Positions 17,353 to 63,760 of a stretch of 64,000 bases of DNA are shown one piece after another. Origin of the DNA: Eledone cirrhosa. Lineage: Eukaryota. The DNA lies in contig OZ024746.1 in NCBI GenBank assembly GCA_964016885.1, forward strand, positions 89,900,001 to 89,964,000, read 5' to 3'. The position numbers and the translations under genes are program-made. Each line of letters opens with the position of its first letter. Within the stretch, counting starts at the first letter, position 1. The notes beneath the pieces were generated by a model. The model ran no database searches. It was not told the origin of the DNA and was given only the letters and a program-made list of their open reading frames with translations.

Positions 17353-17543
17353 AATAATTGTTTTACTTTTGCCACAACGCCAGCAAATACCCGGTGCATT
17401 ACTGGTACTGTATTTTATCGACCTCGTTAGGATGAAGGGCTAGGTTAACGTCGACGGGATTTGACCCCAGACCGTAAAGGGACGTAACTATGCTAGAAAG
17501 CATGGCGGCCAACCCTCTACTGATACTGCCGATTCACCACCCT
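17353..17543 (-). mobile_element. SINE, same family as 16685
   Basis: Colinear similarity over ~190 bp. Confidence 0.85.
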
Positions 17544-22120: not shown

Positions 22121-22734
22121 AATACGTCATCATTTGGAGCGGTGAAAACAATTACACGCAAAGACAAAACCACGTTTATGGTATAAATGAAGACGTAGAC
22201 TAATATCCTATTAGGTGGTTCGTGGAGACGTTCTCTGGCAATGAACAGAAAAAAGAACGGAATTTTCGCAGTTCCGATCTTTGTATATTTAACGAGCTCC
22301 AGATTGTTGAGCTAAGAAATTAGAATGGTTGGGCTACTCTCTCTTGCATTTTCCCCCAATTCATGAGAGCCGTTATTTGATGCAAATAACACGTGATTTC
22401 GCCCTACTCTGGGCAGCGTGTTTTTTGGCTTTCTCTCTATCCAATACGCTAGCTGCGACGTGAACAGTGCCCATACTTGCTGACTGAGGATGCTATGGGC
22501 TGTTATACCGCACATCTCTGTGGTGAAACGATCTAAATTCGTATCAGCAAGTTTATAGCTATAAGGTTAGTATTTTAAAACTCTACATCAGAGATTTGAT
22601 TCTGACTTGGATATTTTTAGGTATTGTTCTCAATACAGTAACGGTTAAACTCACATGTAATAATTGTTTACACACTTCTCACTGTGTAACACACTTCTCT
22701 CTCTCTGTATGTGTGTATATACATATATATATAT

Positions 22735-23986: not shown

Positions 23987-23991
<5 letters not shown>
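22735..23991. repeat. Tandem dimer of a ~622-bp unit plus a ~14-nt start of a third unit, in (TA)n
   Basis: tatgaaaaagtt recurs at 22736, 23358 and 23979. The two units are highly similar but not identical. Confidence 0.92.
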
Positions 23992-24049
<58 letters not shown>

Positions 24050-24053
<4 letters not shown>

Positions 24054-25580: not shown

Positions 25581-26062
25581 GGTTGCAGAATTCAGACTTT
25601 TTATTGAAATAATTAAAGTAGAGATATGTATGTTTATTTGTGTGCTGGGGTGCGAGTGTGTGTGAGTGTGTGTGAGTATGTGTTTGTGTAGGAAGATGAT
25701 TCTAATAGTAGAAATGGGGGAGGGAGTTGTGTGTGTGTAGGTGTGTGTGGGAGTATGGTTAGAATATTAAGATGGAGAGAATATATATATTGTTTTATAA
25801 ATGATTCCGTTAGTACAAATGGGGGGGGGGGGGGGAGTTACTTGTGTGTGGGGTGTGTGGTTAGCATGTTAAATTGTTAGAGTATTAACGTATGTTAAGG
25901 TTTATATATTTCTGGTTTTTATTTTCTAAAATAGGTGTTATGTGTGTGTGTATGTATGTGTCTGTTGGGATGGTTAGCATCTGATGGTGTTGACATAATG
26001 TATATCAAAATATATTTAATGCTGGTCTATATTTTTGAATAAATAGATTTTCCTTATTTATT

Positions 26063-29091: not shown

Positions 29092-29099
<8 letters not shown>

Positions 29100-30217
29100 A
29101 TACTTTGGGAGGGTGATGTTGCCAATATGAAACACACGCACCAGTTGCTTTCACTTCAATTTATTATGAATTAAATTTAGAAATTTCCGGTTGGTTGGTT
29201 GGTTCCACAACCAGACGATTGTTTGTATATTGTCAAAGTTCTTTCGTCACACATTATGTGACCTCTTCAGTGACTGGGGATTCTTTTTTTGTTTTTGTGC
29301 CTCTCCTTTGTTCTGTCCTACGTCATCTTGTTTTTGTGTGTGTTGTCTGCTTAGTTTGCGCATGTGTTACATCCGGGTGTCTGTGTGTGTTTATATTTGT
29401 TTATTTATTTGTTCATTTTCATGTTACTGGTTGGTTGTTTGTTCTATGTTTGTGTGTGTTTTCATTTTGTCTTTAATTGTAAGTTACGATGTTGCTGTTC
29501 CATTCATGTTTTCTATTTAATTTTGGTTGGAGTTCATTTATGTTTATTGCCCCTGTGATTTGGCGAGAGCTTCAAGATAGTAAAGAATCATCTGTCCTCT
29601 ACCAACATGCTAAAATAGAACATAAGGGTAAATTAAAGAACATAGAAATAAAAATAGAATCTACACACATAAAAGACGCAATGTTTAGACAAATCACAGA
29701 GGCAATAAACATAAATGACTCCAACCAAAATAAATAGAAAGCATGAATGGAATAGCAACATCACAACTTACAATTAAGGACAACATGAAAACACACACAA
29801 ACATAGAACAAACAACCAACCAGTAACATGGAAATAAAAAAATAAATAAACAAATATAAATACACACAGACACCCGGATGTAACACATGCGCAAACTAAG
29901 CACATAACACACACACAAACAAGATGGCGTAGGACAGAACAAAGGAGAGGCACACAAACAAAGAAAATAATCCCCATTTACTGAAGAGGTCACATAATGT
30001 GCCACGAAAGAACTTATGAACAATCGCCTGGTTGTGGAACCAAGCAACGAACCGGAAATTTATGAATTCCTAAATTTATAAATTTAATTTATAATAAATT
30101 GAAGTGAGACTGTTGGTGCGTGAGTTTCCTATTGGTAACATGACCCTCCCAAAGTATAAGAATATTGGTTTCAACACACGTTTTCATATACAGAATCTTC
30201 CTAAACAAATTCAGAAA

Positions 30218-30223
<6 letters not shown>
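29092..30223. mobile_element. Head-to-head inverted pair of 5'-truncated PLE subfamily B 3' ends, in (TA)n
   Basis: Minus arm at 29092-29562 and plus arm at 29561-30223. The plus arm carries the EN C-terminus WRELQDSKESSVLYQH...RQITEAINI, then the UTR, then ATG 30140 reading [28 protein letters not shown]. Confidence 0.92.
29232..29274 (-). ncRNA. Minimal hammerhead-like motif of PLE subfamily B
   Basis: Minus strand: gtca CTGAAGA g gtcac-ataatgt-gtgac GAAA g-aa-c TT tgac. Confidence 0.6.
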
Positions 30224-30299: not shown

Positions 30300-30348
<49 letters not shown>

Positions 30349-31202
30349 GGAGGTGAGTTTTATTGTAGCCCAATAAAGCAATGCAGATATCGGATAAGTA
30401 GCACTCTACAGTTTGTCGGACTGGAGTATAAATAATATAAGATCGAAACATGGTTAAAAGAGTTCCAAGTATTTTATTATGCGCATTTCAAAAGCAAATA
30501 TCATCCTGGGATGATATCTGCGTTTTCATTATATAAAATAGGGATACATGATATGAAGCTTAAAAAACACTTGTGAATAGTGAAGTTTTAAATCATTATA
30601 TGAAAAATAATTTAAGATTGATGTATGAGTTTGGGAAAAAGTGAGAGGGGGGTGGGGGTGGAAAAGGTAAGGAAGAGGAGGAGATGAGTGTAAAGAATGG
30701 TGGGGGAGGAGTATAAGAAGGAAGAATGAGAGAGGAAGAGAGATGGGTGACAGTGAGAGAGAGATAGCCTTTACAACTGACAAAAAATATATATTGTCTC
30801 ACAGAGAGAAGTTAAAAAGCCGTTGGAACATAATAGATAATTTAAAAGAATTTGAAATAAAAAGTTAATGAGGTTTATGCATGAAGAGAAAAAAAAGGGA
30901 TTAAGATTAATATTAAATTGAGGTTTGTATATTGAAGGGTTAAATAATACGTGCGAGGAAAATACATTATTAATATGTATCATTAAATTAAAAATAATAA
31001 TGTTATTAAGGATATACTGTGAAAAGAAGTAAAAGAATGAATGAGTTGTGAATTTAGAGGAATAGGTTAGTGTTTAAGTTTGTTTTTATGTAATATAATA
31101 TGTGTGCGTAATATATGTACGTAAATAGTTTGTTTAAAAATGAGCGCAGAAAGCAAAGAAGAAAAGAATGTTTAAGGAAGTAAAATATCTAACATCATTA
31201 TT

Positions 31203-32616
31203 TTGAATTCTTTAAATCGGAAAATTCCTCAACTTCGCGGTGGAATTTATCGTGACGATGGACTTGTTACTATCTTAAATTGCAATTTAGTTAACCTTAA
31301 TAATATTAAGAACAATATACGTGGTCTCTTTAAGCAACATAACCTTAAAATCGAATTTGATAACGTCAAACTAGCTAACTTCTTGGATATATCCCTTAAT
31401 CTTGACACTGCCCTATATTACCCTTACCATAAAAACAATGAGAATCTAAATTATGTTAATTTTAAATCTAACCACCCAACTAACATTAAAAATGCTATAG
31501 TCAGTAATATTGGAAAAATAATATCCTCTAATAAAAATATATTTGGTGCTAACGCCAATTAATATGATAATGCGCTTTCTAAAGCCGGATATCCTGATAA
31601 AATTAAATACAGTAACAAAACCAATCCTAGAATGTCTTACAGTAAAATAATTAATTATGATCATTCCAATAACTTAAATATAAGGCCTAGATACAAAAAT
31701 ATAATCTGGTATAATGCTACTTTCTCTATTTCTATTAATAATAATTGTTTCTACGTTAGGCACAAGGCCAGCAATTACCCAATGTCTAAACTATTCTTTA
31801 GGGCCTTAGATAAATGCTTACCTCCCTCACATATCTATCGTAGAATCTTTAACAAACATACAATAACATTTTCCTATTCCACCTCCTCCAACATCTCTAA
31901 CATTATCTCTAAACACAAAAATAAAATATTAACTATTAAATCACATCCTTCCAACACTGAGCGTCATAATAATAACTGTAGTACTCCCGACGTCATTGTT
32001 AACTCTAGGCAGAGATTCTGCAAACTCAAATACGACGTCAAATGTAATTTCGTTGTATGTTCATAATACCAATCTAAATCAGGAAAATATTATTCCTATC
32101 GTAGATATCGTCTCCAATCCAATTCCTCCTATAAATAACACTAGATCACTTGTTAATAACTCTGTTAATCTCTCTAATCGCAATTGTAATTGCCCTGTTA
32201 GAACTAAATGTCCTCTCAGTAACCATTGTCTTGATTAAAACTTAGTCTATGAATGTAAGGTTATAACTGATACCAATTCCTTTACCTATTTCGGTTCCAC
32301 TTCCACCTCCTTCAAGGCTAGATTTTATAACCACAATTAGTCTTTTAGATACCAACTTAAAATAACTAACACGGCACTCTCAGAACTCATATGGTCCTTG
32401 AAAGACAAACAATATTAGCTATAACATCTCTTGGAGAAAAGTTTGTTCTGCCTCTCCCTACTTGAATGCCTCCCTATCCAGAACATGTAATCTTTGCCTA
32501 TTACTGAGAAAATTACCATTATATCTAATCTCAATTCTATAATAAATAGACGCACTGATTTATTTTCTCTCTGCTTGCATAAATTCCACAGAACATTCCA
32601 CAAAGTATACACCTAA
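31203..32616 (+). pseudogene. Hydra-type PLE RT-GIY-YIG pseudogene (5'-truncated, with stops and frameshifts)
   Basis: GGIYRDDGL, NFLDI, SNHP, IIWYN, IFNKHTITFSYS, CNC...CPL..HC, LVYECKV, YFGST...FKARFYNH, IWSLK, CNLC...EK...NRR..L...CLH. The CxC linker before a C-terminal EN fits the Hydra clade. Confidence 0.82.
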
Positions 32617-33773
32617 TATCTAATACCTTACTAGTTTAACATCTTTTTTCTCAAAGGATTATATATCTTTTAAAAATATACCCATTGTTCTACCTTATTT
32701 CAATATTATTTATTATATATTATATAATACAAGTTACTCATTCTATATCATTCCTCTTTATCAGTTTCCTTTCTTCCTCTTTTCATTCTAATTTATAACC
32801 TCTAATCAGAAATTGTTCTTCCTAACTACTTCCCAATTCTTATTATTACTCACCACAACATTATCCAATCTTCCATCGTTCTTCATTCATTGGCCATAAC
32901 AATTTTTTTTTTTTTTAAAAATACATTATAGTATGATCTTTAATAGTCCTTCGTAAACATAAACATTTTTTTTTTTATGTTAGATTTTTCTTCCTTAAAT
33001 TCCTTATTTCTTCCTTTCATGCTCGTTTGACTTTTACATATTACAATACATAAAAACAAACTTAAACCCTAACTAATTCAGTTAATATATTATATTATTA
33101 CCATTAGAAAATATTTCGTAAACATGTATATTTTTTTATATTAGATATTTTTGTTCCTCAAACATTCTTTTCTTCTTTGCTTTCTGCGCTCATTTTTAAA
33201 CAAACTATTTACGTACATATATTAAGCAAACATATTACATTGCATAAAAACAAACTTAAACACTAACTAATTCCTCTAAATTCACAACTCATTCATTCTT
33301 TTACTTCTTTTCACATTATATCTTTAATAACATTAATATTTTTATTTTAATAATGCATATTAATAATTTATTTTCCTCGCACGTATTATTAAACCCTTCA
33401 CTATACAAACCTTAATTTAATATTATTCTTAATCCCTTTTTTTTCTCTTCATGCATAAACCTCATTAACTTTTAATTTCAAATTCTTTTAAATTATCTAT
33501 TATCTTCCAACGGCTTTTCAACTTCTCTCGGTGAGACAATATATATATTGTTCTCAGTTGTAAAGGCTATCTCTCTCTCTCTATCACCCATCTTTCCTCC
33601 TCTCTCATCCTTCCTTCTTATACTCCTCCCCCACCATTCTTTACTCTCATCCCCTCCTCTCCCCCCCGTCACTTTTTCCCAATATCACACATCAATCTTA
33701 AATTATTTTTCATTGTTGATTTAAAACTTCACTATTTACAAGTGTTTTTTAAGCTTCATATCATGTATCCCTA

Positions 33774-33840
33774 TTTTATCTGATGAAAACGCAGATATCA
33801 TCCCATGATGATATTTGTTTTTGAAATGCGCTTAATAAAA
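33774..33840 (+). ncRNA. Minimal hammerhead ribozyme motif in Hydra pLTR (one stem III mismatch)
   Basis: ttttat CTGATGA-stem II-GAAA tgcgct TA ataaaa. The inverted copy at ~30471-30540 has a mutated core (ataatga). Confidence 0.72.
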
Positions 33841-35989
33841 TACTTGCAACTCTATTAACCATCCTTTGATCTTATATTATTTATACTCCAGTCCTACAAA
33901 CTGTAGAGCGCTACTTATCCGATATTTGCATTGCTTTATTGTGCTACAATAAAATTCACCTTCTACATTATATATATATATATATATAGAACATATGTCA
34001 CCTCACTCCTTTTTCTCTATCTGGCTTTGTATATATATACATATATAGGGAGAGAAAGAGAGGGGGATAGAGAAGGGGAGGAGAGAAAAGGAGATAGAGG
34101 GATAGCAAGAGAGAAAGAGAGCAAGTGGGAGAGATAAATATTATCCACTGTTACATCTTTTATACACATAAGCATAATTATGTTTTTATTTATGGTCCAT
34201 CTCAACGTTCCGTTTTTCTTAATCTTATCGCCTTGTTTACTTTTTAGTTAGAGCTGCCTGATATCCAAATCATTATAGTACTGATAAGCGTTGCGGATAG
34301 ATTCACTAGTTAATTCATGTGTACATATAATTCCTTTGATTATTTTTAAATTTATGTAGATTTTACTGAAAGGTATATAGCAACATCAAAGCAATCTATT
34401 TTTTGCCTTAACGCATTATTTTAAATCAAAACTCATTCATTCGTAATACAATTTCCGAAATATTTTTAGCGGTCTGGTGAAGCAGACTTATACAGAAAAT
34501 TTGTTGCACCCTCCTTCTCTTTCTGTACAATTCTCTTACTAACTCTACTTCTCTTCCCCACTGTGTGTATATTGCAATTCCTATTCAGATATAACTCATG
34601 TGTTTATTTATTTATGTACTATCCTCTTATCTCAATATATGAAGAGTATGTTTACTTCCTCTCGCGTGCGTGGCTTACTGTGTAGTTTTATGGTTTCATT
34701 AATTTAAACCGGATAATCCATGGTCGACAAATATCAGTAATGCACACGTATATAAATCTCAAAACAAATCTGATACGTTTACATTTAAATTCCCTGCAAT
34801 ACTTGGATTCATTTATCTTTGGGCTGTTAATTATATGTCATAAACCTAATTTACAAACCCCATTTTAAATATTGACCCTTGTATGACAGTCATCTCTAGA
34901 CCATAAAATCTATAGCTTTCAAAGACTAGTGGAACTCTTTTTTTCTATAACCTAATATTATATTTCTGTTGAGCAATGTTAAGGATAATCAATATTACTA
35001 ACACCAGGGCTTAGGTGATGCAATTAAAACATACATAATTGATTAAAGCATTTCAAATTCTTTCTTCCCATAATATTATTCTCAATAACTATATTTGTGT
35101 TGAGATACACTTTCTGAAATATTTGTCGTGAATTTTTAACATTGATCATGTATGTTCTTCTTACTTACTGATTTAAGGAAGCAAGTGATTTGTTGATCTG
35201 AAACTCCGTTGTCGACATCATGTTGGCAAAATCCAACCAGTATAAGGTGGTGTAACTTCTGAAGACGTTTTTGCTAGTATATGAGAAATCAGTAATTGTG
35301 GATAGTTATAAATGTCATATTAAATACTACCATTACCGTTTGTCATGTTTATATTCATTTTCTCACAATGTGTCGAATATATACCATTTACATCCTCTGT
35401 AAGTGATTTCTTGACGTGCCAATATATAATGATGTAAGACGCAATATGAAATCTAGTGGAAACCTGAAACACATTTTATTGAATTATTGTATTCCATAGT
35501 GATTTTGGAATAGAAATGCCCACACACTTGATTTCCGTGAAATATATTTTCTATCAATAATATCTATGTATGGAAGAATGTTACTGAAAGATGTCGTATA
35601 ATGTAAATTTTGATATCTCATATTTACATTCTATGCAATCCAATTGAGCTACACGTGTGATAGAGAGAAGGGATGTATGTGCGAATTCATATCGCGTGGT
35701 GATACAAGTCAGCATTTAAAGATAACTAAATACGTAGAAAATGGTAGGTTTTTTTCACTCACAAACAGCCGAATAAGGAAAGAAATAGGTAGAAATTAAG
35801 AGGCAAATGTGAATCTTCATCGAAATTGATTTTTGTTTGTTTCTCTATGCAACCATGTTTGTTATCAACATTGGTATTCATATTTGTTTTTAATTTGTAA
35901 TCTATATGTATAAAAGCAGGATTATATATATATGGAACGATCGACTTTCGTCAACTTGGACCGAGGAAACAATGTTTCCATTGGTATTT

Positions 35990-40475: not shown

Positions 40476-41109
40476 CTCTGTATACATATATACGGTTCCG
40501 TTTAAGACAGTCTTCACAACAAGAAAGATGAACAAACCATTCCAACATTTAATTTTAAATTTTGAATTATTTTTAATAGCAATATTCAACATTTGATAAG
40601 ATGGATTACACTGATACATAGAATCCGGTTATAATTTATATATTTTATATACACTAAAAAAACTCCTTAAAAAATACAAATAATGAACTGATTAGATGGA
40701 AATATAATATTTCAGAGCATATTTATTTCCTTACACATGGGAGTTGTACATCCAATTATATGAAATGTTATGAAACAATTCGCATAATGAATATTGATAT
40801 AAATGCATTCATATACATACACAATTCGACGCTCTCTCTCTTCAGAGAAACAATAAAATATCTTCGAATGAAAGAAAGTATGTCTGAAATACAATTTGTA
40901 AACTCGGCCATAGGGATGAAGCTATGGCAGGAGACATTTCAACAGTGTAAATAATACACATTCATTTTCTTCCAGTCTATATAATATTTAGCTAATTCTG
41001 AAATGGTGTGGCATTATATACTCTATAAACTATAATAAAGTAAGGAGCGCAGTACTGCGAACGGTTTATAAATTGTTATCCCATTAGGAAAATAAGTTTC
41101 CTTTGAATC

Positions 41110-41300
41110 AATAATTGCTTTTACTTCAGGAACAAGGTCAGCAATAACCCAGTGCATTACTAGTACTTTATGTTATCGACCCCCTAAGGATGAAAGGTAA
41201 AGTTAACTTCGACAGGATTTGAACTCAGACCGTAAAGGGACATAACTATGCTGGAAAGCATGGCATCCGACCCTCTAACGATATTGCCAATTCACCCACC
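41110..41300 (-). mobile_element. SINE, same family as 16685
   Basis: Colinear similarity. Confidence 0.85.
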
Positions 41301-41750
41301 CACCTTTGAATAAATAATGAATGAATATTACATAATTTATCTACTAAACTTCGTGGCTGTTCAATATATTTTGTTTATCTAAAGATTCACTTCTTTAACA
41401 TTGCTGAAATGTTAACACTTCCGGTTGACCATCGCTTAAATAAACATACTAATTTTCTGTCACTAATTTTCTCCTAATGCAGATTATATATAATATCGTC
41501 TTTATTGATGTGTCATGGATTACGTTACTGATTAAATAAGACAGTGTAATGCAGTCTTCGTTCAATTTCTATGTATTGTCAATTACGATTTTAATTGATG
41601 CATCATATCTACATGTATATATAGCTGCGTACAATATCAATATACACACTATACATGCTAGCAGAAAAACACCCGAGGGTGGTTTTTCTGCTGGTCATAC
41701 ATAATGCCCTACTTCTCTTTGAGCTTTGTATATACAGTGAGGCATTTGCT

Positions 41751-43610: not shown

Positions 43611-44238
43611 ACCACAAACCTGATATCTTTCCTTTATAATATTAAAGTTGTTTTCTAATTGAGCATTGTTTAAAGTCAGCTAAAACGATTTCCATTTATA
43701 TTGTTTTTGTATTGGATTTTTCTGAATTTACATTACTCCTAGAACTACTCATTTCACCCGTTTATACTGCAATTCAGACAGCTTTAGTACAAATAATAAT
43801 TGAGTCTCGGTGTTGGGGGAAGAGCGAATGAACTAATATTGGTTATTTTTGCTAAATGGTAAGATTGCATTTAAAATTCCTAATTTAATGATAGTTATGT
43901 ACAATTTGCCGCCATATATGTGTATTTGATTACCTTCGAAAAAGTAAACCAAAGAAGGAGTCGCCCTATAGGAGAAATAAATAGCAAAGTTGCTAACGAA
44001 TGATATGAAACACTGCTTCCACAGACTTTTACGCAGATGATAACAGTATACTAAGTAAATATACCTACAGTAAATACTATTATGTTTACACTAATTACAG
44101 GCATACGATATATTAATATCAGAGTAGTTGTGCTAGTAATAAATGATAGAACAACTATTAGGAAAAGTACCGTTAGATAATTCTGCCAATTACAACCTTC
44201 ATTAATTTTAGGAAAATCTCTGTTTACAGTTTGTCGAT

Positions 44239-44314
<76 letters not shown>

Positions 44315-44377
44315 GTCCCAAGGCTCTGATACCATCAACACTATAAACACAGAACTGGCATATCTAAGAACTGACTA

Positions 44378-44433
44378 ACTGCCTGATGAGGTCATAGCCA
44401 TTCAATGACTATCATCGAAATATATATAGCAGT
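44378..44433 (+). ncRNA. Minimal type I hammerhead ribozyme motif in a short pLTR remnant (44313-44470)
   Basis: Stem I actgc/gcagt, CTGATGA at 44383-44389, stem II gtcat/atgac, GAAA at 44417-44420, stem III t-atat-a, AUA site, followed by AATAAA. Confidence 0.78.
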
Positions 44434-44470
44434 AAATAAAGGATTATGAGTTCATGCAATTGACTTATGT

Positions 44471-44602
<132 letters not shown>

Positions 44603-44692
44603 GGAAAAAGATGAGTATTGATGTAGTACAATACTCATCTTTTTCCATTTATCTGAGGGTTCTAAACCGCATTATCAGGTAAAATTTCTTTC

Positions 44693-44737
<45 letters not shown>

Positions 44738-44999
44738 CGGCGATGAATTAGTTTTGCGAGGTTTTTTATATGAAATCGTGTGTCGAAACAGATATTGTTA
44801 TATTTGGGGAGGGTCATATTTGCGTAATATTGCCAGAATTAATAACAGAACACACTCACTGTTTGGTTGGTTTTCGCTTCTCGCTGTCTTTTATATATAT
44901 ATATCTGCGATCTAACTTACTCGGTCCTCAATGTTGCCATTGACTGACCGGCGGTCAAAAATAATACAGATACAATATAGACAAACACATATATATATA

Positions 45000-45046
45000 G
45001 TTTACATAAATCTTTCGTTGCACATCTGCAACATCGTCAGTGGTGT
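45000..45046 (-). ncRNA. Hammerhead-like motif in PLE 3' UTR/pLTR (mirror of 52510-52556)
   Basis: CTGACGA t gttgca-gatg-tgcaac GAAA gattt a. Confidence 0.6.
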
Positions 45047-45319
45047 TATATTCATTGTTCCTCCTGTTGTGTTGTATGTCTACGCCATTTTTGTTTGTGT
45101 TCAGTCTGTCTATATATTTATTTATTTATTTATTTGCTTGTTTGTTTATCTTATTTTATTTTGTCTTCTTTGCGCATGCGTTTGCGTGTGTGTATAGTGT
45201 TATGTGTGATGTGTGACTAGTGTGTATAGTGTTGTGTCTGCTGGGTGACTAGTGTGTGTTTATGTGCTTGTGTATGTATTTATTTATCTTATTTTATTTA
45301 ATTTAATTTACTTATTTAT

Positions 45320-48300
45320 TTATACTTCTCTTAGGTCAGTGTTGTTTGTTTGGGTGTTGTTGTTGTTCCACTCATTCTTTCTGTTTAGCTTTGGTCTTCT
45401 AATTTCTATTTCACTGGCCTCTCTGATTTGCCTATCTGCTGGGTCATTCCTATGTTTAGATATTATTCTAATTTCTATGTTGTCTATGTTACCGTCATGA
45501 TGTTGTCTAGCATGTTCGTATAGTACTGACCCGTTTTTTCGTCCTTTTAGTTCCCCCCAGTGTTGGTCTATCCTTTCACCTATGCTACGAGCTGTCTCAC
45601 CTATGTATGTTGTTGTCGTGTTTCTGCAAGTACCCTCTGTACATCTTATGCTATAGACTACGTTTCTAGTTTTACAGTTTATCCGGGGGTTCACCTTACA
45701 TATGATACATTTCCTATTGGTACAGTGGGTTTTCTTAAAAGGGTAGGTTTTGCTGATCAGGGATTTTATGGTGGTTCCTGGCTTTTCTACCACCTTTATT
45801 TTTAAGTGGGTCTTTCTCAGGGCCTTTCTACACTGGTTAGCTAATTTCCCTCCAGGGGTGGCGTCCACAAACATGACACTCTGATATCTCTGGTTGTCGT
45901 ACCATGATGTGGCCTTCCCTATCTTATGTCTAGCCCTATCTAAGCTATTCCATGATTTGCTCCTGTATAGTGGGCAAATTCCTTTCATGTCCAGTTCTAT
46001 GAGGGTCTTATACTTTTCCATGGCTCCTTCGTATACTCTGACTCTGTCTCTTTGGTTGTAGCCAGAGAACTGCATGCGGTTGATGAAGTGTTGGATGTGT
46101 CCTTCCATTTCTGTTGGGTCGCACATGCTGGACACATTCTTCATCACTCGTACCAAATCTGCGATCAGAATATTAAACTTAGCACTACTGGACATTGCTG
46201 AGTTTTTGAGTATCAGGTATTTGGAGGCCATGGGTTTAGCATAGTGTGAGTGGAGAATTTGGGCTCTCTCGTCTATAGTGTTAATCCAGAGTTCTGTGTC
46301 TAATACAGGTAGTCTATTGTTAGGGTGTTTGGAAGGGAAGTCTATAGTTACAGTTATACTCTGGTGTATGGAATTAGCTATCTGCTGGACGCTTTCCATC
46401 GTGCTACGTTCTAAATCAAACTTGTTAGTGCTCTCTAGTGGGGGTGTTCTTATAACTATATTGATATCGTCTACATAACGAGAGTACATGATGAGGTCTA
46501 TGGAGCTTTCATTAAGGAGATCTTTAAGTCTCCTTTCCCACCATACCATGAAAAGGTTGGCAACATCGCCAGCTATGCTGACGCCGATGGCTGCTCCCTC
46601 ATTTTGGGTGTAGATTTTCTCATTGAACTTAAATATGTGGCCCTTTAGGGTAGTTTTGATACTAGCCCCTATTGCATGTGCGACCATTTTTCTTACCTGA
46701 TCAGTGTTTTGGGGGGTCCGTATAGCTTTGGTCCACCCAATCCACCTTCCTATGGGAGTCTTTTTAGCCATTGAGGTTATGGTGGGGGGTCTACCTCTTA
46801 TAGGTCTACTAGGGCAGAAACATCTAAGGTCATGGCTGTCTAGGTAGTCAGTGTCGTAGGTAAGTCTAAGTAGGAGGCCCAGTTCGTCTGTGTCGACGTC
46901 GCAGAACTCCACCTCACTCTCAATGATCATCTCCACACATCTTTTCACAGCAAAATCAATGTTAATGGATGGGTACAGTGACACCACATCCATGCTGCCT
47001 ATTATGCAGTTGGATAGGCTCCTGTTTTTGTTGCACTCACTGATTCTGCTGAGGAGGTCCTCTGTACTTTCACATACATCTGGGGACATCTTGATTATGG
47101 GGCGTATAACCATTGAGAGGAAGTAGGAGATCCTGTAGTTGCTAGCTATATTAGCTCCGCATACAGGTCTTGTTGGTGGTCCTATTGTCGGGTCGTCGAC
47201 TGTCTTGTGGTCTTTGCGGAGCCCATACAAGGGTGGTATGCCATTGTTAGACGCCTGGAAGTTGTTGGCAGTGCGTCTGCTTGGCTTTAGGATGTCAGTC
47301 CACATCATCATGTGAGCGTTGAGGATTTTTTCTCTCCCATCGTGTGTTAGTTGTGCAACTTCGCTCGTGTTGGTGATGTGGGGTTGCATTGCCTCGATGT
47401 AGTTCGGCATGCTATCTATTGACATCCTACCAGACTTATCTGTGGGTAGACACACTACCTCACCATCCCTTGTGCGCTGCTTGAGGCTAACCAAGCCTTC
47501 TACAGGTTTTATCCCAAGTTGTTGGGCCTCTGGTCTGCTCTGTCTCATAGTGTACCTGTCTACTACTTGTCTAATCTTATTTCTAGCTATGGTGAACTGT
47601 GCCTCCGTCTCGTCATCTATTTGTTGTGGTATGCAAACTCTTTTATTAAAGGGTAACCTCGTAGGATAGATATTACCCATCTTATATGTTTTGTCAGCTG
47701 GGTTGAAAAATAGTTTCTCTAAGGGGTTGTCGTTATTTCTATCGTCATAGTTGTGTGTGTTGCTATTATTGTTATCATGGTGGTTGTTGTTGTTTCTATC
47801 CTTAGCATTAATATTATTATTGTTATGATTGCTAGATGTATTGTTGTTTACTTCACCGTTATTGTTGTTGTTGTTACTGCTATTTCTACCATTGTGGTTG
47901 TTACTATTATTATGTTTCTTGTTTTTGTTGATGTTGCTACATGTACTATTTCCATTATTACCACTGTGGTTATTGTTGTTGTTGTTGTTCGTATTGTTAC
48001 CGTTATTACTACTGTGGTCACTGTTGTTGTGTCTGTGGTTAACGTTTCTATTATTATTATTATTGTGGTTGTTGTTGTTCTGTCTATCGCTAGTATTATT
48101 ACCATTATCACTATTTCTCACTTTCCTGCCATTGTTATGGTTATGGCTGTTATTTCTATACCCAGAGTTATTGTTTATATTACTACTACCGTTATTATTG
48201 TTGTTGTTGTTTACCTTTGCATTCCAACGTATTTTTGTGAAACACTTTTCCAGCTCCGTTTTGCATTCCATAGGATTAATCTTTTTGTAGATGGCAAATT

Positions 48301-48887
48301 TTGGTGGTAACTTTAGGATTTGTTGTTCTTGTTCACTGATTAAAGTGTTCCCATAGATATTTACTGTGTGGTCATTGGTAAATTCTTCCGGTAGTTTTAC
48401 ATCACTCATACGGATGTTGTCGATGTTATCTGGGTATTTTTGAGAATATTCGATTTTCCTTTCTTGTAGTTTTTTCTTATTCATCCATTCTAATTTCTTC
48501 TTGAAATGCCTACAGCATTCGTTTTGAGCATATTTCGTTTCGCGTCGGATGACGCTCATGAAGTCATCTCTCTCGTTTGCTGTGATGAGATTTCGGATTT
48601 CCTTACCGTTGATGCGTTTTTGTCTGTAGAGTGCGTTGACTTTTGTGTATGTTGTTCTTTTCATATTAACTGTTATTGTGTGTTTTAGCCGTTCAGCTTG
48701 TGTTTTGTTCAATAATAAATTATTTACTTGTTTTGATATGTTTGTTGTGTATGTTTTGGAGGAAACACAGTGTTTTAAGAAGCGGATTTGTTCTGTTGTT
48801 ATTGTAGTTTTTATATAACAGAAAACAGTGTCTTTCAATAACCTTTCAGCTTGGCACAAGCTAATGCCATAGCGGCGATGAATTAGT
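45320..48887 (-). CDS. PLE polyprotein: RT plus C-terminal GIY-YIG endonuclease, uninterrupted but lacking its first ~22 codons
   Basis: PTDKSG, LYGLRKDHK, RPVC, SMDVVSLYPSI, GAAIG, YSRYVDD, LPVLD, CTNRKCIIC linker, NVVYSIRC...YIGETAR...R...H...H...H, RQIREASEI, LNRKNEW. The track start at 48859 is a TTG (Leu), and the frame stays open to ~48887. Confidence 0.95.
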
Positions 48888-48891
48888 TAAT

Positions 48892-51800
48892 ATGAAAAGA
48901 ACAACATACACAAAAGTCAACGCACTCTACAGACAAAAACGCATCAACGGTAAGGAAATCCGAAATCTCATCACAGCAAACGAGAGAGATGACTTCATGA
49001 GCGTCATCCGACGCGAAACGAAATATGCTCAAAACGAATGCTGTAGGCATTTCAAGAAGAAATTAGAATGGATGAATAAGAAAAAACTACAAGAAAGGAA
49101 AATCGAATATTCTCAAAAATACCCAGATAACATCGACAACATCCGTATGAGTGATGTAAAACTACCGGAAGAATTTACCAATGACCACACAGTAAATATC
49201 TATGGGAACACTTTAATCAGTGAACAAGAACAACAAATCCTAAAGTTACCACCAAAATTTGCCATCTACAAAAAGATTAATCCTATGGAATGCAAAACGG
49301 AGCTGGAAAAGTGTTTCACAAAAATACGTTGGAATGCAAAGGTAAACAACAACAACAATAATAACGGTAGTAGTAATATAAACAATAACTCTGGGTATAG
49401 AAATAACAGCCATAACCATAACAATGGCAGGAAAGTGAGAAATAGTGATAATGGTAATAATACTAGCGATAGACAGAACAACAACAACCACAATAATAAT
49501 AATAATAGAAACGTTAACCACAGACACAACAACAGTGACCACAGTAGTAATAACGGTAACAATACGAACAACAACAACAACAATAACCACAGTGGTAATA
49601 ATGGAAATAGTACATGTAGCAACATCAACAAAAACAAGAAACATAATAATAGTAACAACCACAATGGTAGAAATAGCAGTAACAACAACAACAATAACGG
49701 TGAAGTAAACAACAATACATCTAGCAATCATAACAATAATAATATTAATGCTAAGGATAGAAACAACAACAACCACCATGATAACAATAATAGCAACACA
49801 CACAACTATGACGATAGAAATAACGACAACCCCTTAGAGAAACTATTTTTCAACCCAGCTGACAAAACATATAAGATGGGTAATATCTATCCTACGAGGT
49901 TACCCTTTAATAAAAGAGTTTGCATACCACAACAAATAGATGACGAGACGGAGGCACAGTTCACCATAGCTAGAAATAAGATTAGACAAGTAGTAGACAG
50001 GTACACTATGAGACAGAGCAGACCAGAGGCCCAACAACTTGGGATAAAACCTGTAGAAGGCTTGGTTAGCCTCAAGCAGCGCACAAGGGATGGTGAGGTA
50101 GTGTGTCTACCCACAGATAAGTCTGGTAGGATGTCAATAGATAGCATGCCGAACTACATCGAGGCAATGCAACCCCACATCACCAACACGAGCGAAGTTG
50201 CACAACTAACACACGATGGGAGAGAAAAAATCCTCAACGCTCACATGATGATGTGGACTGACATCCTAAAGCCAAGCAGACGCACTGCCAACAACTTCCA
50301 GGCGTCTAACAATGGCATACCACCCTTGTATGGGCTCCGCAAAGACCACAAGACAGTCGACGACCCGACAATAGGACCACCAACAAGACCTGTATGCGGA
50401 GCTAATATAGCTAGCAACTACAGGATCTCCTACTTCCTCTCAATGGTTATACGCCCCATAATCAAGATGTCCCCAGATGTATGTGAAAGTACAGAGGACC
50501 TCCTCAGCAGAATCAGTGAGTGCAACAAAAACAGGAGCCTATCCAACTGCATAATAGGCAGCATGGATGTGGTGTCACTGTACCCATCCATTAACATTGA
50601 TTTTGCTGTGAAAAGATGTGTGGAGATGATCATTGAGAGTGAGGTGGAGTTCTGCGACGTCGACACAGACGAACTGGGCCTCCTACTTAGACTTACCTAC
50701 GACACTGACTACCTAGACAGCCATGACCTTAGATGTTTCTGCCCTAGTAGACCTATAAGAGGTAGACCCCCCACCATAACCTCAATGGCTAAAAAGACTC
50801 CCATAGGAAGGTGGATTGGGTGGACCAAAGCTATACGGACCCCCCAAAACACTGATCAGGTAAGAAAAATGGTCGCACATGCAATAGGGGCTAGTATCAA
50901 AACTACCCTAAAGGGCCACATATTTAAGTTCAATGAGAAAATCTACACCCAAAATGAGGGAGCAGCCATCGGCGTCAGCATAGCTGGCGATGTTGCCAAC
51001 CTTTTCATGGTATGGTGGGAAAGGAGACTTAAAGATCTCCTTAATGAAAGCTCCATAGACCTCATCATGTACTCTCGTTATGTAGACGATATCAATATAG
51101 TTATAAGAACACCCCCACTAGAGAGCACTAACAAGTTTGATTTAGAACGTAGCACGATGGAAAGCGTCCAGCAGATAGCTAATTCCATACACCAGAGTAT
51201 AACTGTAACTATAGACTTCCCTTCCAAACACCCTAACAATAGACTACCTGTATTAGACACAGAACTCTGGATTAACACTATAGACGAGAGAGCCCAAATT
51301 CTCCACTCACACTATGCTAAACCCATGGCCTCCAAATACCTGATACTCAAAAACTCAGCAATGTCCAGTAGTGCTAAGTTTAATATTCTGATCGCAGATT
51401 TGGTACGAGTGATGAAGAATGTGTCCAGCATGTGCGACCCAACAGAAATGGAAGGACACATCCAACACTTCATCAACCGCATGCAGTTCTCTGGCTACAA
51501 CCAAAGAGACAGAGTCAGAGTATACGAAGGAGCCATGGAAAAGTATAAGACCCTCATAGAACTGGACATGAAAGGAATTTGCCCACTATACAGGAGCAAA
51601 TCATGGAATAGCTTAGATAGGGCTAGACATAAGATAGGGAAGGCCACATCATGGTACGACAACCAGAGATATCAGAGTGTCATGTTTGTGGACGCCACCC
51701 CTGGAGGGAAATTAGCTAACCAGTGTAGAAAGGCCCTGAGAAAGACCCACTTAAAAATAAAGGTGGTAGAAAAGCCAGGAACCACCATAAAATCCCTGAT

Positions 51801-52236
51801 CAGCAAAACCTACCCTTTTAAGAAAACCCACTGTACCAATAGGAAATGTATCATATGTAAGGTGAACCCCCGGATAAACTGTAAAACTAGAAACGTAGTC
51901 TATAGCATAAGATGTACAGAGGGTACTTGCAGAAACACGACAACAACATACATAGGTGAGACAGCTCGTAGCATAGGTGAAAGGATAGACCAACACTGGG
52001 GGGAACTAAAAGGACGAAAAAACGGGTCAGTACTATACGAACATGCTAGACAACATCATGACGGTAACATAGACAACATAGAAATTAGAATAATATCTAA
52101 ACATAGGAATGACCCAGCAGATAGGCAAATCAGAGAGGCCAGTGAAATAGAAATTAGAAGACCAAAGCTAAACAGAAAGAATGAGTGGAACAACAACAAC
52201 ACCCAAACAAACAACACTGACCTAAGAGAAGTATAA
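48892..52236 (+). CDS. PLE polyprotein, second (more 5'-truncated) identical copy, 1114 aa
   Basis: Identical translation to the minus copy from MKRTT onward. YVDD at 51079-51090, VVY at 51895-51903, YIG at 51949-51957. Confidence 0.95.
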   Translation: MKRTTYTKVNALYRQKRINGKEIRNLITANERDDFMSVIRRETKYAQNECCRHFKKKLEWMNKKKLQERKIEYSQKYPDNIDNIRMSDVKLPEEFTNDHTVNIYGNTLISEQEQQILKLPPKFAIYKKINPMECKTELEKCFTKIRWNAKVNNNNNNNGSSNINNNSGYRNNSHNHNNGRKVRNSDNGNNTSDRQNNNNHNNNNNRNVNHRHNNSDHSSNNGNNTNNNNNNNHSGNNGNSTCSNINKNKKHNNSNNHNGRNSSNNNNNNGEVNNNTSSNHNNNNINAKDRNNNNHHDNNNSNTHNYDDRNNDNPLEKLFFNPADKTYKMGNIYPTRLPFNKRVCIPQQIDDETEAQFTIARNKIRQVVDRYTMRQSRPEAQQLGIKPVEGLVSLKQRTRDGEVVCLPTDKSGRMSIDSMPNYIEAMQPHITNTSEVAQLTHDGREKILNAHMMMWTDILKPSRRTANNFQASNNGIPPLYGLRKDHKTVDDPTIGPPTRPVCGANIASNYRISYFLSMVIRPIIKMSPDVCESTEDLLSRISECNKNRSLSNCIIGSMDVVSLYPSINIDFAVKRCVEMIIESEVEFCDVDTDELGLLLRLTYDTDYLDSHDLRCFCPSRPIRGRPPTITSMAKKTPIGRWIGWTKAIRTPQNTDQVRKMVAHAIGASIKTTLKGHIFKFNEKIYTQNEGAAIGVSIAGDVANLFMVWWERRLKDLLNESSIDLIMYSRYVDDINIVIRTPPLESTNKFDLERSTMESVQQIANSIHQSITVTIDFPSKHPNNRLPVLDTELWINTIDERAQILHSHYAKPMASKYLILKNSAMSSSAKFNILIADLVRVMKNVSSMCDPTEMEGHIQHFINRMQFSGYNQRDRVRVYEGAMEKYKTLIELDMKGICPLYRSKSWNSLDRARHKIGKATSWYDNQRYQSVMFVDATPGGKLANQCRKALRKTHLKIKVVEKPGTTIKSLISKTYPFKKTHCTNRKCIICKVNPRINCKTRNVVYSIRCTEGTCRNTTTTYIGETARSIGERIDQHWGELKGRKNGSVLYEHARQHHDGNIDNIEIRIISKHRNDPADRQIREASEIEIRRPKLNRKNEWNNNNTQTNNTDLREV

Positions 52237-52509
52237 ATAAATAAGTAAATTAAATTAAATAAAATAAGATAAATAAATACATACACAAGCACATAAACAC
52301 ACACTAGTCACCCAGCAGACACAACACTATACACACTAGTCACACATCACACATAACACTATACACACACGCAAACGCATGCGCAAAGAAGACAAAATAA
52401 AATAAGATAAACAAACAAGCAAATAAATAAATAAATAAATATATAGACAGACTGAACACAAACAAAAATGGCGTAGACATACAACACAACAGGAGGAACA
52501 ATGAATATA

Positions 52510-52556
52510 ACACCACTGACGATGTTGCAGATGTGCAACGAAAGATTTATGTAAAC
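52510..52556 (+). ncRNA. Hammerhead-like motif in PLE 3' UTR/pLTR
   Basis: CTGACGA at 52516-52522, one extra nt, 6-bp stem II, GAAA at 52540-52543, very short stem III. Stem I is weak. Confidence 0.6.
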
Positions 52557-52660
52557 TATATATATATGTGTTTGTCTATATTGTATCTGTATTATTTTTG
52601 ACCGCCGGTCAGTCAATGGCAACATTGAGGACCGAGTAAGTTAGATCGCAGATATATATA

Positions 52661-52741
52661 TATAAAAGACAGCGAGAAGCGAAAACCAACCAAACAGTGA
52701 GTGTGTTCTGTTATTAATTCTGGCAATATTACGCAAATATG
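52661..52741 (+). promoter_or_regulatory. Candidate pLTR promoter/5' UTR: TATAAAAG upstream of the element's true ATG (52739)
   Basis: TATAAAAG at 52661-52668, Inr-like acagt ~30 nt downstream, then an ATG conserved in subfamily B. Sequence inference only. Confidence 0.35.
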
Positions 52742-52756
52742 ACCCTCCCCAAATAT

Positions 52757-52828
<72 letters not shown>

Positions 52829-54855
52829 CTGTTCGGCATAACACCTCCCGGAGCAGAACCGAACGCACGTTGATTCCTTCAAATATTAACTACTCCCTTT
52901 TAAATTACCAATGGGTATTACTCTTTCCAGATTTTAAGGATCAAACCCCAGACGTATTTCCGTGACACAGGCGTCGAACGATTCCTGTGCCTCACTTAAT
53001 TACAAGCGCGTTTTAAGGTTATCTTTCTGGCTTCACAAAATGATAGCTTCATGTTGACCTGGCCCATTGACCATCATATTAGACGCCAAGACCTTGAATT
53101 GCAATGCACTAGACAATTCTATCTACGCCTGCCAATGTGCAGTGGATCAGTTCAATTTCTGGAAGTGTTCGTCGCAGACTGTGATGACTTCGTCATCAAA
53201 CCGGTTGCCAAGTGAAGCGCTGTAGTCGTGTAGCGCACCGAACTCTACAAACCGGAAACATTACACCAGCAGCACAAACCCTTCTACAACTACCTTCTAC
53301 CTCTCATACTATCCGTCAACTTTACGCGAAGTCGAGTCCTGATCATTTCCTGCACTGATTGACAGGCATTTTATGTGCATGAAACATATAACAAAAAAAC
53401 ATTAATACATTTTCTAATAAACACAGAGATAGAAAGCCATACATACTCACACACACCTAAATCTGCGCATATATGTACATACTTATTCTGACTTAACATC
53501 GTATATTGTTGTGCTACTATGGTAATATAACGGCCGTTATATATTCAATTCCATTCCAGTTATTTCACCTATTGAAGAAAGTTCGTATTTTTCGCTTACA
53601 ACATCATTTCACACAATGGCACACAACGTCCATATACGATGCTAATGTACCCAGGCATACATTCACACCATCAGCAACAACACATACGCTCATAGACATA
53701 AAGTGTACTTAGATAAATAACACGCACTCACGTCTCCCTCATTTTCCCTCCTATATCTCTGAACACCATAACCGTTTTAATTCTTCTCTGTGTATATATT
53801 TGTATTCATGTGCTCATGTGAAGTACTAACCTCTGATGTATTGAACTGTTTCTCCCTTTTCCAGGCGTCAACATAATAATACTCTTCCTATTGTATCTTT
53901 GTTTGTTTATATATTAAACTATATATATGTTAATAATGCCAGAACACCTAGTTAAAGTTCTATAATACCAATTTAATATCATTTATTAGTTATTAAGTTT
54001 GTTATTCAAATATCATATAATTATTCAATTAATATTGTATTAATGCCATCGTTATATGTCCCATCTTATACAAACGTATTATTAGAATCAATAATAATAA
54101 TGTGTTAATCACATAATACATTTAATGGAAGAAAAATAGAAATTTAAAAATAGAATCTAGGCAAGTTAATACCAATGTGTTTCATAGCATAACTTCTAAT
54201 ATTTTCAATTGTCACTGAAACTCATATTTCGCTAAAGGGGAAAAGTTTAAGTTGATTTATAGTCATACATTTCAGAGAGTAACAGTTATACACAGAGCCA
54301 TGAATGGTATTTCTTTAAATCCTCAGATGAAATATCTTGTATTGTTTGTTTGGGATCTCAGCTCTCTGAGCACAAACCCCACAGATGTCAAACTTATCTC
54401 CAACACGTTTGGTTTCATAAACATGGAAGCAATCCAACGCAATGTATCGACGGAATCTTTACACAATTTGGCTCGAGGCCTTGTAGTATATTTTCTGATT
54501 TTTGTGTTTTGACGATAAAAACGCGTTACAATTCGAATCGGTCTATTGTTTATTTGGATCTTTTCGTCAGTGATTCTTAAACATATCAATGCTTTGTGTT
54601 ATCAATGTTATCATTACACATCAAGACTTCCATCACTTCCATCACGATATCCATTCTCTTGAAATTTAGATTTATTTTCTTACAATTTGAACGGCATTTC
54701 CTAACAGAGAATTTGCAATACTGAAATGTACACCATAGGTGACAAATATTAGTATTACATCCGAAATCTGAGCAGCATCACACACACGCGTACACACACA
54801 CACACACACATACATACATACAAACACACACACACACACACATACATACATACAA

Positions 54856-54921: not shown

Positions 54922-55072
54922 ACTAAAGAGTTTACCCTGATAGTGGGATTTAGAACCCTCTAAAAAATGGAAAAAGATGAGTATTGACGTACATTTAGAT
55001 CAACACTCATCTTTTTCCATGTTTAGATAGTTCTAAATAAACCCCACTATCAGGCTAAACATTTCTTTAGTA
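54921..55072. repeat. ~150-bp fold-back; partial homolog at 44601-44695
   Basis: tactaaaga..cctgatagtggg..atggaaaaagatgagt pairs with actcatctttttccat..cccactatcagg..tctttagta. Confidence 0.8.
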
Positions 55073-56921: not shown

Positions 56922-57108
56922 ATAATTGTTTCTACTTTTGGCACAAAGTCAGCAATTACCCAGTGCATTACTGGTACTTTATTTTATCGAACCGGTAAGG
57001 ATGAAAGGCAAAGTTAATCTCGGCGGGATTTGAACTCAGAATGGCAAGGACCGTAACTCTATGCGTCAAAGCATGGCGTCCGACCCTCTATCGATACTGC
57101 CAATCCAC
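56922..57108 (-). mobile_element. SINE, dominant family
   Basis: Colinear similarity. Confidence 0.88.
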
Positions 57109-57210
57109 TTACATGAAATCTATAATAAAATAAAGGGAGGAGTGGGGGACAATGTCCGTTTTATATTTTTTTATATCCCGTTAATAAAATAAGTTGGGCT
57201 ACTTTGAATA

Positions 57211-57332: not shown

Positions 57333-57549
57333 ATAATGAAGGATTATATAATGTATCTACTAAATTTTGTAACACATAAGTAAGTTAATATATTACTAAT
57401 TTCAACATTTACTTCTTTTAAAAGTTTAAAATTTCAACTTCCGGTACATCGAAACAACCACTACTACCATATATATAGACATAGCGAGAACAATGACCAA
57501 ATGTATGAACAGACAGAGTGACTATGTGCTATATATATATATATATATA

Positions 57550-57729
57550 AAGGAAAAGAGTCAGGACCCCGACGGGTATTTCTGAGTTCAGAAATAGCCG
57601 TCGAAACGGCTTGAGCTCTGCCGTCGGCTCCTGACTATTTTCCTAGTACCCATTCTACTACTCCTACTCAAAGTATCGAGTACTCTGGTGCGTTATGGTC
57701 CACCTCGTTCTTTACCACACTTCCTTCGT

Positions 57730-57731
<2 letters not shown>
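57550..57731 (+). mobile_element. Hammerhead-derived fold-back pLTR remnant, same family as 6751-6920
   Basis: agaaatagccgtcgaaacggcttgagctctgccgtcg is identical to the 6.8-kb copy. Shared tail ending ccttcgttat, with (TA)n flanks. Confidence 0.75.
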
Positions 57732-59917: not shown

Positions 59918-60110
59918 TTGGTGGATTGGCAGTATCGGTAGAGAGGCGGACACCATGCTTTGACGCAAAGAGTTACGTCCCTTGCCATTCTGAGTTCAAA
60001 TCCCGCCGAGGTTAACTTTGCCTTTCATCCTTACGAGGCAAATAAAATAAAATACCAGTAATGCACTGGGTAATGTGCTGGCCTTGTGCCTAAAGTAGAA
60101 ACAATTATTG
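59918..60110 (+). mobile_element. SINE, dominant family
   Basis: Full-length colinear copy with A and B boxes. Confidence 0.88.
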
Positions 60111-60871
60111 ATTTTATTGCTTAGCTACATAATCATGTCAAGAAAGAGAGAGAGAGAGTGAAAGAGATATTCCATGTGTATTTAAGTTTTACATAATCTC
60201 AGTTAATTTATATTAATCACCTTACTAAATTGTAATTATGAGCTCATTTGGCACTTCTCTTCTCTATGTAGAGATGATCAAATGTAAAGTCAATCGAAAC
60301 AGGATTTGAGCTGAGAATATTCTAATGCAAAACTAAATATTATTAAGCGTTAACTTTCACACACATTGGTACATGACTACCGAATTTTCATTAATTATAG
60401 CTGCGAGAACCTATATGAACTATAGAGAATATATCTAGGTTACGTTCACGCGAAAATTAATGAAACATTTAGTCGGGGAATTGCAATATCTGTTTTATCA
60501 CATTTTGCTATCATTCTCACTCAAAATAAACACGAGATACATATATACGATTTACGGATAACGACGCTTCCTTTTCAACATACTAAACAGAGATCTTGCT
60601 CTACAGACTTTGACCTTTCATTGCATTCTATAGAGTATTTGCATATATTGAAAATTCAATGAGTTATTATAAATAGAATTTATCAAATTCAGCTTCTGTC
60701 TTCTAATTAGTAGCACATTCATATATCCATGGCTGGAACTGTGTTTCCGTGAAGTATAACGAGAACTTAATATTTAGTTCGAATGTGTTGTTTATGGAAA
60801 AATCAATGAGCATATTTCTGTAAGATCTCATACACAATGTTTCACCAATATAGAGATAACAAGAACACCTT

Positions 60872-62854: not shown

Positions 62855-63370
62855 AGGATGATGTGGTTGAGAAGAAGAGCAAAGCTTGGATGGCGTTCTA
62901 CAGTTTGAGATCTGTGTGGAAGTCAGACCATCGTAAAGAACTGATGATCCGTCTCTTCGTTGCTACAGTGTTGGTCTGAGAATTGCAAACTGACCAAGAA
63001 ACCCACTCAGATGGTGGATGAGTGTTACATGAGAATGATGGGTTACATGATGATGCTCTGAACATTAATAAGTATACTCTGAGGATGAAGAACTCAGATA
63101 TGTGCCGGAGCCTCCGAAAGGTCAGCTTGAAAGTGACACAGAGGAGATTGAGGTTAGCTGGACATGTGCACCGACATTCAGAGTTGACACTGCACTCGGT
63201 ACTCATGTGGGAGACCCTAACCGGACACACTAGAAGAGGGAGACCGAGCTTGACATATGTTGATGCCCTATGGAGAGACACATGTCTCTTTGAGACGCAG
63301 GACATGGCAGGGACGATGAAGGTCAAAACAACTGGAAGAACTCGTCCATGGATCTCGGGAATTTTACTCG
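62855..63370 (+). mobile_element. RTE-type LINE 3' fragment (family of 21296-21785)
   Basis: KAWMAFYSLRSVWKS, RRLRLAGHVHRH, RRGRPSLTYVD. Confidence 0.85.
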
Positions 63371-63372
63371 TC

Positions 63373-63760
<388 letters not shown>

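Follow-up and report, generated by a model that had tools for sequence, protein, structure and literature searches.

An inverted, 5′-truncated copy combined with a tail on one side only is a described layout of Penelope-like elements (PLEs) (PMC8557442, PMC3846280). Penelope, Neptune, Nematis and Naiad (PMC8557442, Fig. 2 legend) and Pen2a_Av (PMC3846280) all have such a copy in head-to-head orientation, and they resemble the locus described here also in an open reading frame (ORF) that starts inside the pseudo-long terminal repeat (pseudo-LTR), a (TA)n target and a putative hammerhead core in the pseudo-LTR. How PLEs form their tandem and inverted ends is described as an open question (PMC8557442). 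In Octopus vulgaris, 336 recent PLE insertions from 31 families occupy 1.83 Mb (PMC13282606), which by our own arithmetic is a mean of 5.4 kb per insertion, so that long young insertions are not rare in that species.

Here we describe a PLE locus in a 64,000-nt stretch of DNA from Eledone cirrhosa (assembly GCA_964016885.1, contig OZ024746.1, positions 89,900,001 to 89,964,000, forward strand), hereafter called the window, to which all coordinates refer. The locus consists of two identical 5′-shortened PLE copies placed head to head within a (TA)n array, and is likely one young inverted insertion. Its parts are as follows, with ORF positions (+n) counted from the native ATG.

44697-44736, no strand: left half of the (TA)n target, its last 2-3 bases shared with the element end
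44734-44753, minus: 20-nt direct repeat, identical to 48869-48888
44737-44791, minus: tail, on one side only and external to the arm, comprising ORF nt +27 to +81 of the next unit; end position as in an older copy at 30219
44792-48671, minus: left arm, 3,880 nt
48672-48884, minus: spacer, 213 nt, part of the normal coding sequence in the left copy
48885-48888, no strand: inversion junction with AGTT overlap, complement of AACT at 48668-48671
48885-52764, plus: right arm, 3,880 nt, ORF nt +282 to +22/+26 of the next unit, without a tail
52761-52819, no strand: right half of the (TA)n target, its first 4 bases shared with the element end

A self-comparison of the window showed that in the assembly sequence the two arms form a perfect, gap-free inverted pair (3,880/3,880 bases), which bears out the identical arms and 213-bp spacer of an initial annotation of this DNA. 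That annotation had placed the beginning of the insertion at 44792; the insertion in fact begins at about 44735-44737, directly on (TA)20, and the 55 nt preceding the left arm continue the frame of the outward ATG at 44817. One unit of the element measures 4,135 nt (by arithmetic, 1,210 codons plus 502 non-coding nt). The left copy corresponds to one unit plus 20 nt, running from ORF +65 through the whole unit to +81/84 of the next, and the spacer is its extra 5′ coding sequence. The AGTT microhomology, which had been annotated correctly, both opens the right arm and closes the left copy; an overlap of at least 4 nt occurred in 1.4% of 200,000 random head-to-head joins of the element.

The initial annotation had further held that inverted PLE insertions are known and that arms of nearly full length are uncommon. 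The layout is indeed the published norm, with five more cases in the window, and the length of the inverted arms is extreme: the inverted copy covers 94% of the unit here, compared with about one pseudo-LTR in known inverted PLEs. The upstream direct repeat is also only 20 nt long in our locus, and tails measure 55-60 nt rather than 30-40 nt.

Perfect arm identity could also reflect an assembly or read artefact, with the second arm created by a fold-back read or by a misjoin, or with real differences between the arms removed during polishing. Fold-back reads account for ~0.55-0.6% of nanopore genomic reads (PMC12870357), and the inverted structures of PLEs are reported to trouble assemblies (PMC8557442). 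However, the right arm ends 55 nt short of the left flank, at a biological end that is seen in three other places, and then continues into different flanking DNA, whereas a read fold-back would enter the mirrored left flank. A misjoin of two loci would have had only 4 shared bases, and nearby there are pairs of this build whose divergence shows them to be old, one of them with the same two ORF end positions. We therefore consider an artefact very unlikely, although polishing may still have levelled the arms.

If the arms drift freely, zero differences give a 95% bound of 0.08% divergence, or ~0.1 million years at 3.6e-9 per site per year, a rate that we obtained from the calibration in PMC13282606; with gene conversion, the apparent age would be lower than the true one. 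The single, very recent insertion that had been proposed for this locus agrees with the bound. The active family proposed along with it is overstated, as that claim rests on one locus.

The coding and non-coding features of the two copies are listed below.

44815-44817, minus: native start codon in the left pseudo-LTR, facing outward (MTLPKYNN...)
45007-45040, minus: putative hammerhead-ribozyme core (motif scan and fold) with CUGACGA, a 6-bp stem II and GAAA; mirror of the core at 52516
45320-48886, minus: left open frame, comprising N-terminal helices, Asn-rich insert, reverse transcriptase (RT), linker zinc finger and GIY-YIG endonuclease, without the first 22 codons
49333-49830, plus (mirror 47726-48223): Asn-rich in-frame insert upstream of the RT, 166 aa, 51% Asn
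50566-50952, plus (mirror 46604-46990): RT motif 3(A) to 4(B), 128 aa apart, with ~70 extra conserved residues
51079-51090, plus: catalytic YVDD of the RT
51832-52173, plus: C-x4-C-x2-C-x7-C linker and GIY-YIG endonuclease with CCHH, R, H, E and N residues
52237-52738, plus: 502-nt non-coding part of the pseudo-LTR, with the hammerhead core at 52516
52739-52741, plus: native start codon in the right pseudo-LTR, facing outward

From stop to stop, both frames are open, with 1,188 codons in the left copy and 1,123 codons in the right copy (48865-52236, plus), as the initial annotation had stated. Native ATGs occur at the outer ends only (52739, plus; 44817, minus) and both face outward, again as annotated; the accompanying claim that neither ORF has its own start holds for the native ATG but not in general, because an in-frame internal ATG at unit codon 97 is kept in both copies (48892 on the plus strand). 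As neither frame is preceded by a start or a pseudo-LTR, further spread of either copy would probably require read-in by a host transcript. Promoters were not located with the scan that we applied, whose model is bacterial and uninformative for this element.

A putative hammerhead core lies ~220 nt upstream of each native ATG (52516 and 45040; motif scan and fold). Of four older related copies, three also have the core and stem II, with other bases forming the pairs; stem I of the focal hammerhead looks weak. An Rfam scan of 44000-54000 returned 8 weak matches, all of them microsatellites or outside the element, and left the hammerhead core unscored. A further hammerhead-like core in the left flank (44383-44420) may be what is left of another PLE.

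Residues 390-1188 of the protein, used as a query, retrieved 207 relatives; the best among the matches listed, and the only one of them that carries an organism name, is an Octopus vulgaris protein (68% identity). Homologue statistics are based on the best 120 of the 207 relatives (an alignment of 121 rows), chosen by similarity to the query. The O. vulgaris protein is the sister of the focal protein in a tree of 64 of these 121 rows, among which there are no named reference PLEs. When the model of the RT and endonuclease (pLDDT 92) was compared with known structures, the top 14 VIA rows were all telomerase RTs (best Z 14.8, root mean square deviation (rmsd) 4.0, 276 aligned) and the first two Foldseek ranks were telomerase, as is expected for a PLE. 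By sequence, the focal protein had no match in Pfam, where 4 of 19 aligned members matched RVT_1 and 1 matched GIY-YIG, weakly; nor did it have a match in PDB, where a profile gave weak bacterial RTs and histone noise only. Among Atlas neighbours, PF01541 was present in 26-58% of members. Eight endonuclease residues (Y1078, C1082, Y1094, G1096, R1105, H1109, H1125 and H1130) are invariant in 53 aligned proteins, in which E1156 and N1168 are conserved in at least 90%; C1087 is conserved in at least 90% of both a 19-row and the 121-row alignment. All four linker Cys are present in 118/121 rows, with the 4-2-7 spacing in 71/121 and a last spacing of 5-11 residues in 118/121. The element thus has the single ORF with a telomerase-related RT and a GIY-YIG domain with CCHH, R, H, E and N that mark a PLE, and, in its layout, an ORF start inside the pseudo-LTR, an inverted truncated copy and a one-sided tail.

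As to the origin of the locus, we favour a single recent event: the endonuclease would have nicked the target on both strands, and reverse transcription would have been primed from each of the resulting ends. We give this reading about an even chance of being correct. The template RNA would have been longer than one unit. The left target end would have primed at ORF nt +81/84 and the right end at +22/26, two fixed start sites that delimit the tail. Both complementary DNAs (cDNAs) would have run over almost the whole unit and stopped close together, whereupon their 3′ ends would have annealed through AGTT/AACT, any overhang would have been trimmed and each cDNA would have been copied on the other. 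Twin priming of L1 elements likewise involves two primings from opposite target strands and an inverted join with a few bases of microhomology; the two L1 cDNAs, however, cover different parts of one RNA, whereas here both cover the same 3.9 kb. In the literature searched, we found no paper on Penelope twin priming with inversion.

This reading draws on the published PLE layout, on the rarity of a 4-nt overlap and on the telomerase RTs among the structural matches. It is also consistent with work on a Poseidon PLE, which in vitro nicks and extends both target strands, is predicted to form a dimer, and begins reverse transcription from two positions within the 5′ part of the ORF, which correspond to the borders of the tail (PMC11167929). 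At the two start sites of our element, no stable stem-loop was found (z 0.27 and 0.18).

Further support comes from other insertions in the window. A masked self-comparison together with reading of the sequence yielded six (TA)n-bounded inverted pairs, five of which are older than the focal one; two of these five were identified as PLEs by protein. The five older pairs are as follows.

5839-6679: between (TA)n arrays; old and complex, direct-plus-inverted, ~80% identical
6754-6917: 49/53 identical, spacer 5, tail 53
29096-30219: related subfamily, 419/453 identical, spacer 127, tail 60
30346-33968: 770/828 identical, spacer 1,942, no tail
44603-44696: 18/18 identical, spacer 8, tail 50

A one-sided tail of 50-60 nt is present in four of the six pairs. 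The pair at 29096-30219 ends at the same ORF positions as the focal locus (+22 and +81, one per side); it has an overlap of ~2 nt at its join near 29561 and hammerhead cores in both arms. A longer relative at 24.4-25.6 kb is 69% identical to the focal element. In addition, a solo 250-nt pseudo-LTR fragment with a hammerhead core (63469-63717), located between two (TA)n arrays, ends at +22 and has no inverted partner, which suggests that the tail-less end is a priming site in its own right. The lengths of the two copies within a locus are coupled (ratios 1.05, 1.09, 1.27, 1.44 and 3.28 in five loci; P ~0.001 under two nulls), and this coupling requires a shared stop or a shared origin.

Several observations on these same insertions can be recorded separately. 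The pair at 30346-33968 is a decayed PLE with ~850-bp inverted arms (93%), whose linker CNCPVRTKC (CxCX5C) shows the Hydra-clade pattern. Those at 44603-44696 and 6754-6917 are miniatures of the same build, 18-bp and 53-bp hairpins with one-sided tails of 50 and 53 nt between (TA)n arrays. The former directly adjoins the focal target and has a relative at ~54931-54974; relatives of the latter lie near 57549-57730. A decayed 1.5-kb 3′ fragment of the related subfamily at 24046-25581 (minus strand) is tail-less, and no inverted partner was seen.

Some of the evidence, however, weighs against two-ended priming. The geometry alone cannot separate it from fold-back self-priming, the in vitro work concerns another PLE clade with a tail of 30-40 nt, and no target-site duplication is readable within (TA)n. 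The joined flanks do not demonstrate an empty site: they give no repeat that is found elsewhere in the 64-kb window, and an interrupted repeat was not rebuilt. The loci in the length-coupling test had been selected as inverted, with the complex one at 5839-6679 excluded, and very short arms would have been missed.

Under fold-back self-priming, one cDNA of 4,154 nt, primed at +84, would have folded back at AACT with a 213-nt loop and served as its own template; at ATAT, the product would then either have been linked to the far (TA)n end or have undergone cleavage by the endonuclease. Consistent with this, 12 sites offer 4 or more complementary bases and AACT is the nearest among them, the tailed copy is the longer one in both readable loci (2/2), and two small loci have spacers (5 and 8 nt) that resemble hairpin loops. 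The coupling of arm lengths is explained as well. Self-priming on an antisense template has been proposed for head-to-head PLE palindromes (PMC3846280), and resolution by the endonuclease has been proposed for the tail (PMC8557442). Nevertheless, a separate cause would be needed for the stop at +22/26 each time, an end that is also present without inversion at 63469-63717; the tail borders are RT start sites in vitro (PMC11167929); and the pairing would involve four bases only. On balance, we regard fold-back as a close but less likely alternative to two-ended priming.

Either mechanism might, in addition, have used a circular or dimeric RNA template. In the circular version, the left cDNA would be one lap of a 4,135-nt circle made by the hammerhead that stalled 20 nt past its own start; in the dimeric version, it would have run along a tandem RNA until it met another priming complex, located one unit further upstream. 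The left copy of one unit plus 20 nt, which ends at +65 between the two start sites, fits this proposal, and such an end has a probability of 1.3% if the stop is uniform, or of 6-11% once the copy is taken to be long. Hammerhead cores are present, and circular templates have been proposed (PMC4209133). However, the relation was observed at a single locus with modest significance after conditioning, does not recur at the pair 29096-30219, and involves a hammerhead whose stem I looks weak; for a Poseidon element, hammerhead cleavage was unneeded in vitro and unseen in RNA-seq (PMC11167929). A role for such a template is accordingly improbable.

The RT contains a more surprising lead than the palindrome, and one that was absent from the initial annotation, as were the tail, the hammerhead cores and the unit-plus-20-nt length. 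The distance between RT motifs 3 and 4 (RT3-RT4) is 128 aa here and 126-135 aa in 121/121 rows. Hand counts from Fig. S1 of PMC8557442 gave ~57-60 aa for canonical rows, 84 aa for one Naiad, up to ~119 aa for Chlamys and ~115 aa for human TERT. The ~70 extra residues lie at the position of the telomerase fingers insertion (IFD), include near-invariant residues and fold confidently in the model. The segment matched 189 clusters at 50% identity, and look-alike Atlas clusters had no informative name. Folded alone (pLDDT 86), it had no Foldseek match among solved folds at E 0.001; its best Z among 48,161 chains was 4.7 (rmsd 3.8, 65 aligned), which shows neither likeness nor difference to the telomerase insertion.

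Canonical PLEs are stated to lack an insertion between RT3 and RT4 (PMC8557442). A Nematis-like C-terminal endonuclease combined with such an insertion was not found in the literature searched, outside which lie Repbase, Arkhipova 2006 and Evgen'ev and Arkhipova 2005; the motifs RPVC and ELGLY were not found in the supplement of PMC8557442. Several points speak against its being new. At this position, Pen3 and Pen5a of Adineta carry a short Cys-rich insert, ours being longer and of a different motif (PMC3846280); Fig. S1 presents selected rows; our rows were picked by similarity to the query; and likeness to the telomerase insertion is no more than a possibility. The lineage may also already be present in Repbase, Arkhipova 2006 or Evgen'ev and Arkhipova 2005. 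We thus propose an undescribed insertion-bearing PLE lineage only tentatively, with a likelihood slightly short of one half. If the insertion does mark an unnamed lineage, it contradicts the statement that canonical PLEs with a C-terminal endonuclease lack the IFD, and provides an intact-looking enzyme with which to examine whether the insertion aids processivity. A joint reading, in which an unnamed lineage with a Nematis-like C-terminal endonuclease and a fingers insertion of telomerase length copies whole units processively, and the locus represents one lap of a 4,135-nt circular RNA, halted 20 nt beyond its own start, plus a second, mirror-image cDNA, seems improbable to us.

With regard to consequences at the locus, double-stranded RNA, small RNAs, editing and self-silencing are hypotheses; the small RNAs produced by PLEs of Adineta are mostly antisense. 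In yeast, rearrangements are ~20-fold fewer with a 200-bp spacer than with one of 12 bp, though not in single-stranded DNA (PMC10164571). Given this effect, and since older inverted pairs survive in the window at 80-93% identity, fragility of the palindrome, while plausible, would be damped. The locus is a candidate only, as a source of double-stranded RNA or as a fragile site. Its value lies rather in being a mutation-free insertion with three readable junctions beside older insertions with the same two ends, which fixes the coordinates for a genome-wide test of mechanism that would separate two-ended priming, fold-back and a circular template.

Elsewhere in the window, broken non-LTR retrotransposon frames occur at 1888-2888 and 63022-63501, with a match to Pfam RVT_1 at 2376-2888 (1.4e-10). 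A tandem pair at 22732-23991 (~640 bp each, 96% identical, G- and A-rich) ends at a (TA)n array. A dispersed repeat of ~200 bp, resembling a short interspersed element or a miniature inverted-repeat transposable element (79-90% identity), was observed at 16675-16892, 17339-17564, 41106-41301, 56922-57133 and 59920-60119.

Finally, the element can be compared with the described PLE clades. Naiad was the first guess on the basis of (TA)n targeting, and Naiad/Chlamys elements also share an insertion at the IFD position, inverted copies and tails; however, their endonuclease is N-terminal and they lack canonical hammerheads, whereas here the endonuclease is C-terminal and a hammerhead core is present, and the domain order rules Naiad out. 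Neptune is similar in its CX2-5CxxC linker, (TA)n targeting and C-terminal endonuclease, but is ruled against by the spacing from CxxC to the next Cys (~25 residues in Neptune rows, 7 here), and its RT3-RT4 distance is ~57 aa with no insertion. The Hydra clade is defined by the absence of CCHH, a CxCX5C linker, DKT and a length of <3 kb, whereas our element has CCHH, DKS and a 4.1-kb unit. Pen2a, Pen3 and Pen4 of Adineta vaga (PMC3846280) resemble it in a long in-frame Asn-rich segment and long inverted structures; they belong to the Penelope/Poseidon group, and their Asn inserts lie between RT and endonuclease or between RT and thumb, whereas here the insert is upstream of the RT. The closest likeness is to Nematis, which has a C-terminal GIY-YIG domain with CCHH and, in the Nematis rows of Fig. 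S2 (PMC8557442), the same short linker C-x4-C-x2-C-x7-C. Differences from Nematis are the 128 aa between RT3 and RT4, compared with ~60 in the nematode rows of Fig. S1 (a hand count on rows that we infer to be Nematis), where no insertion is expected from the statement on canonical PLEs; DKS instead of DKG; and the mollusc host. We have therefore filed the element as an endonuclease-bearing, Nematis-like PLE and left its clade unassigned.

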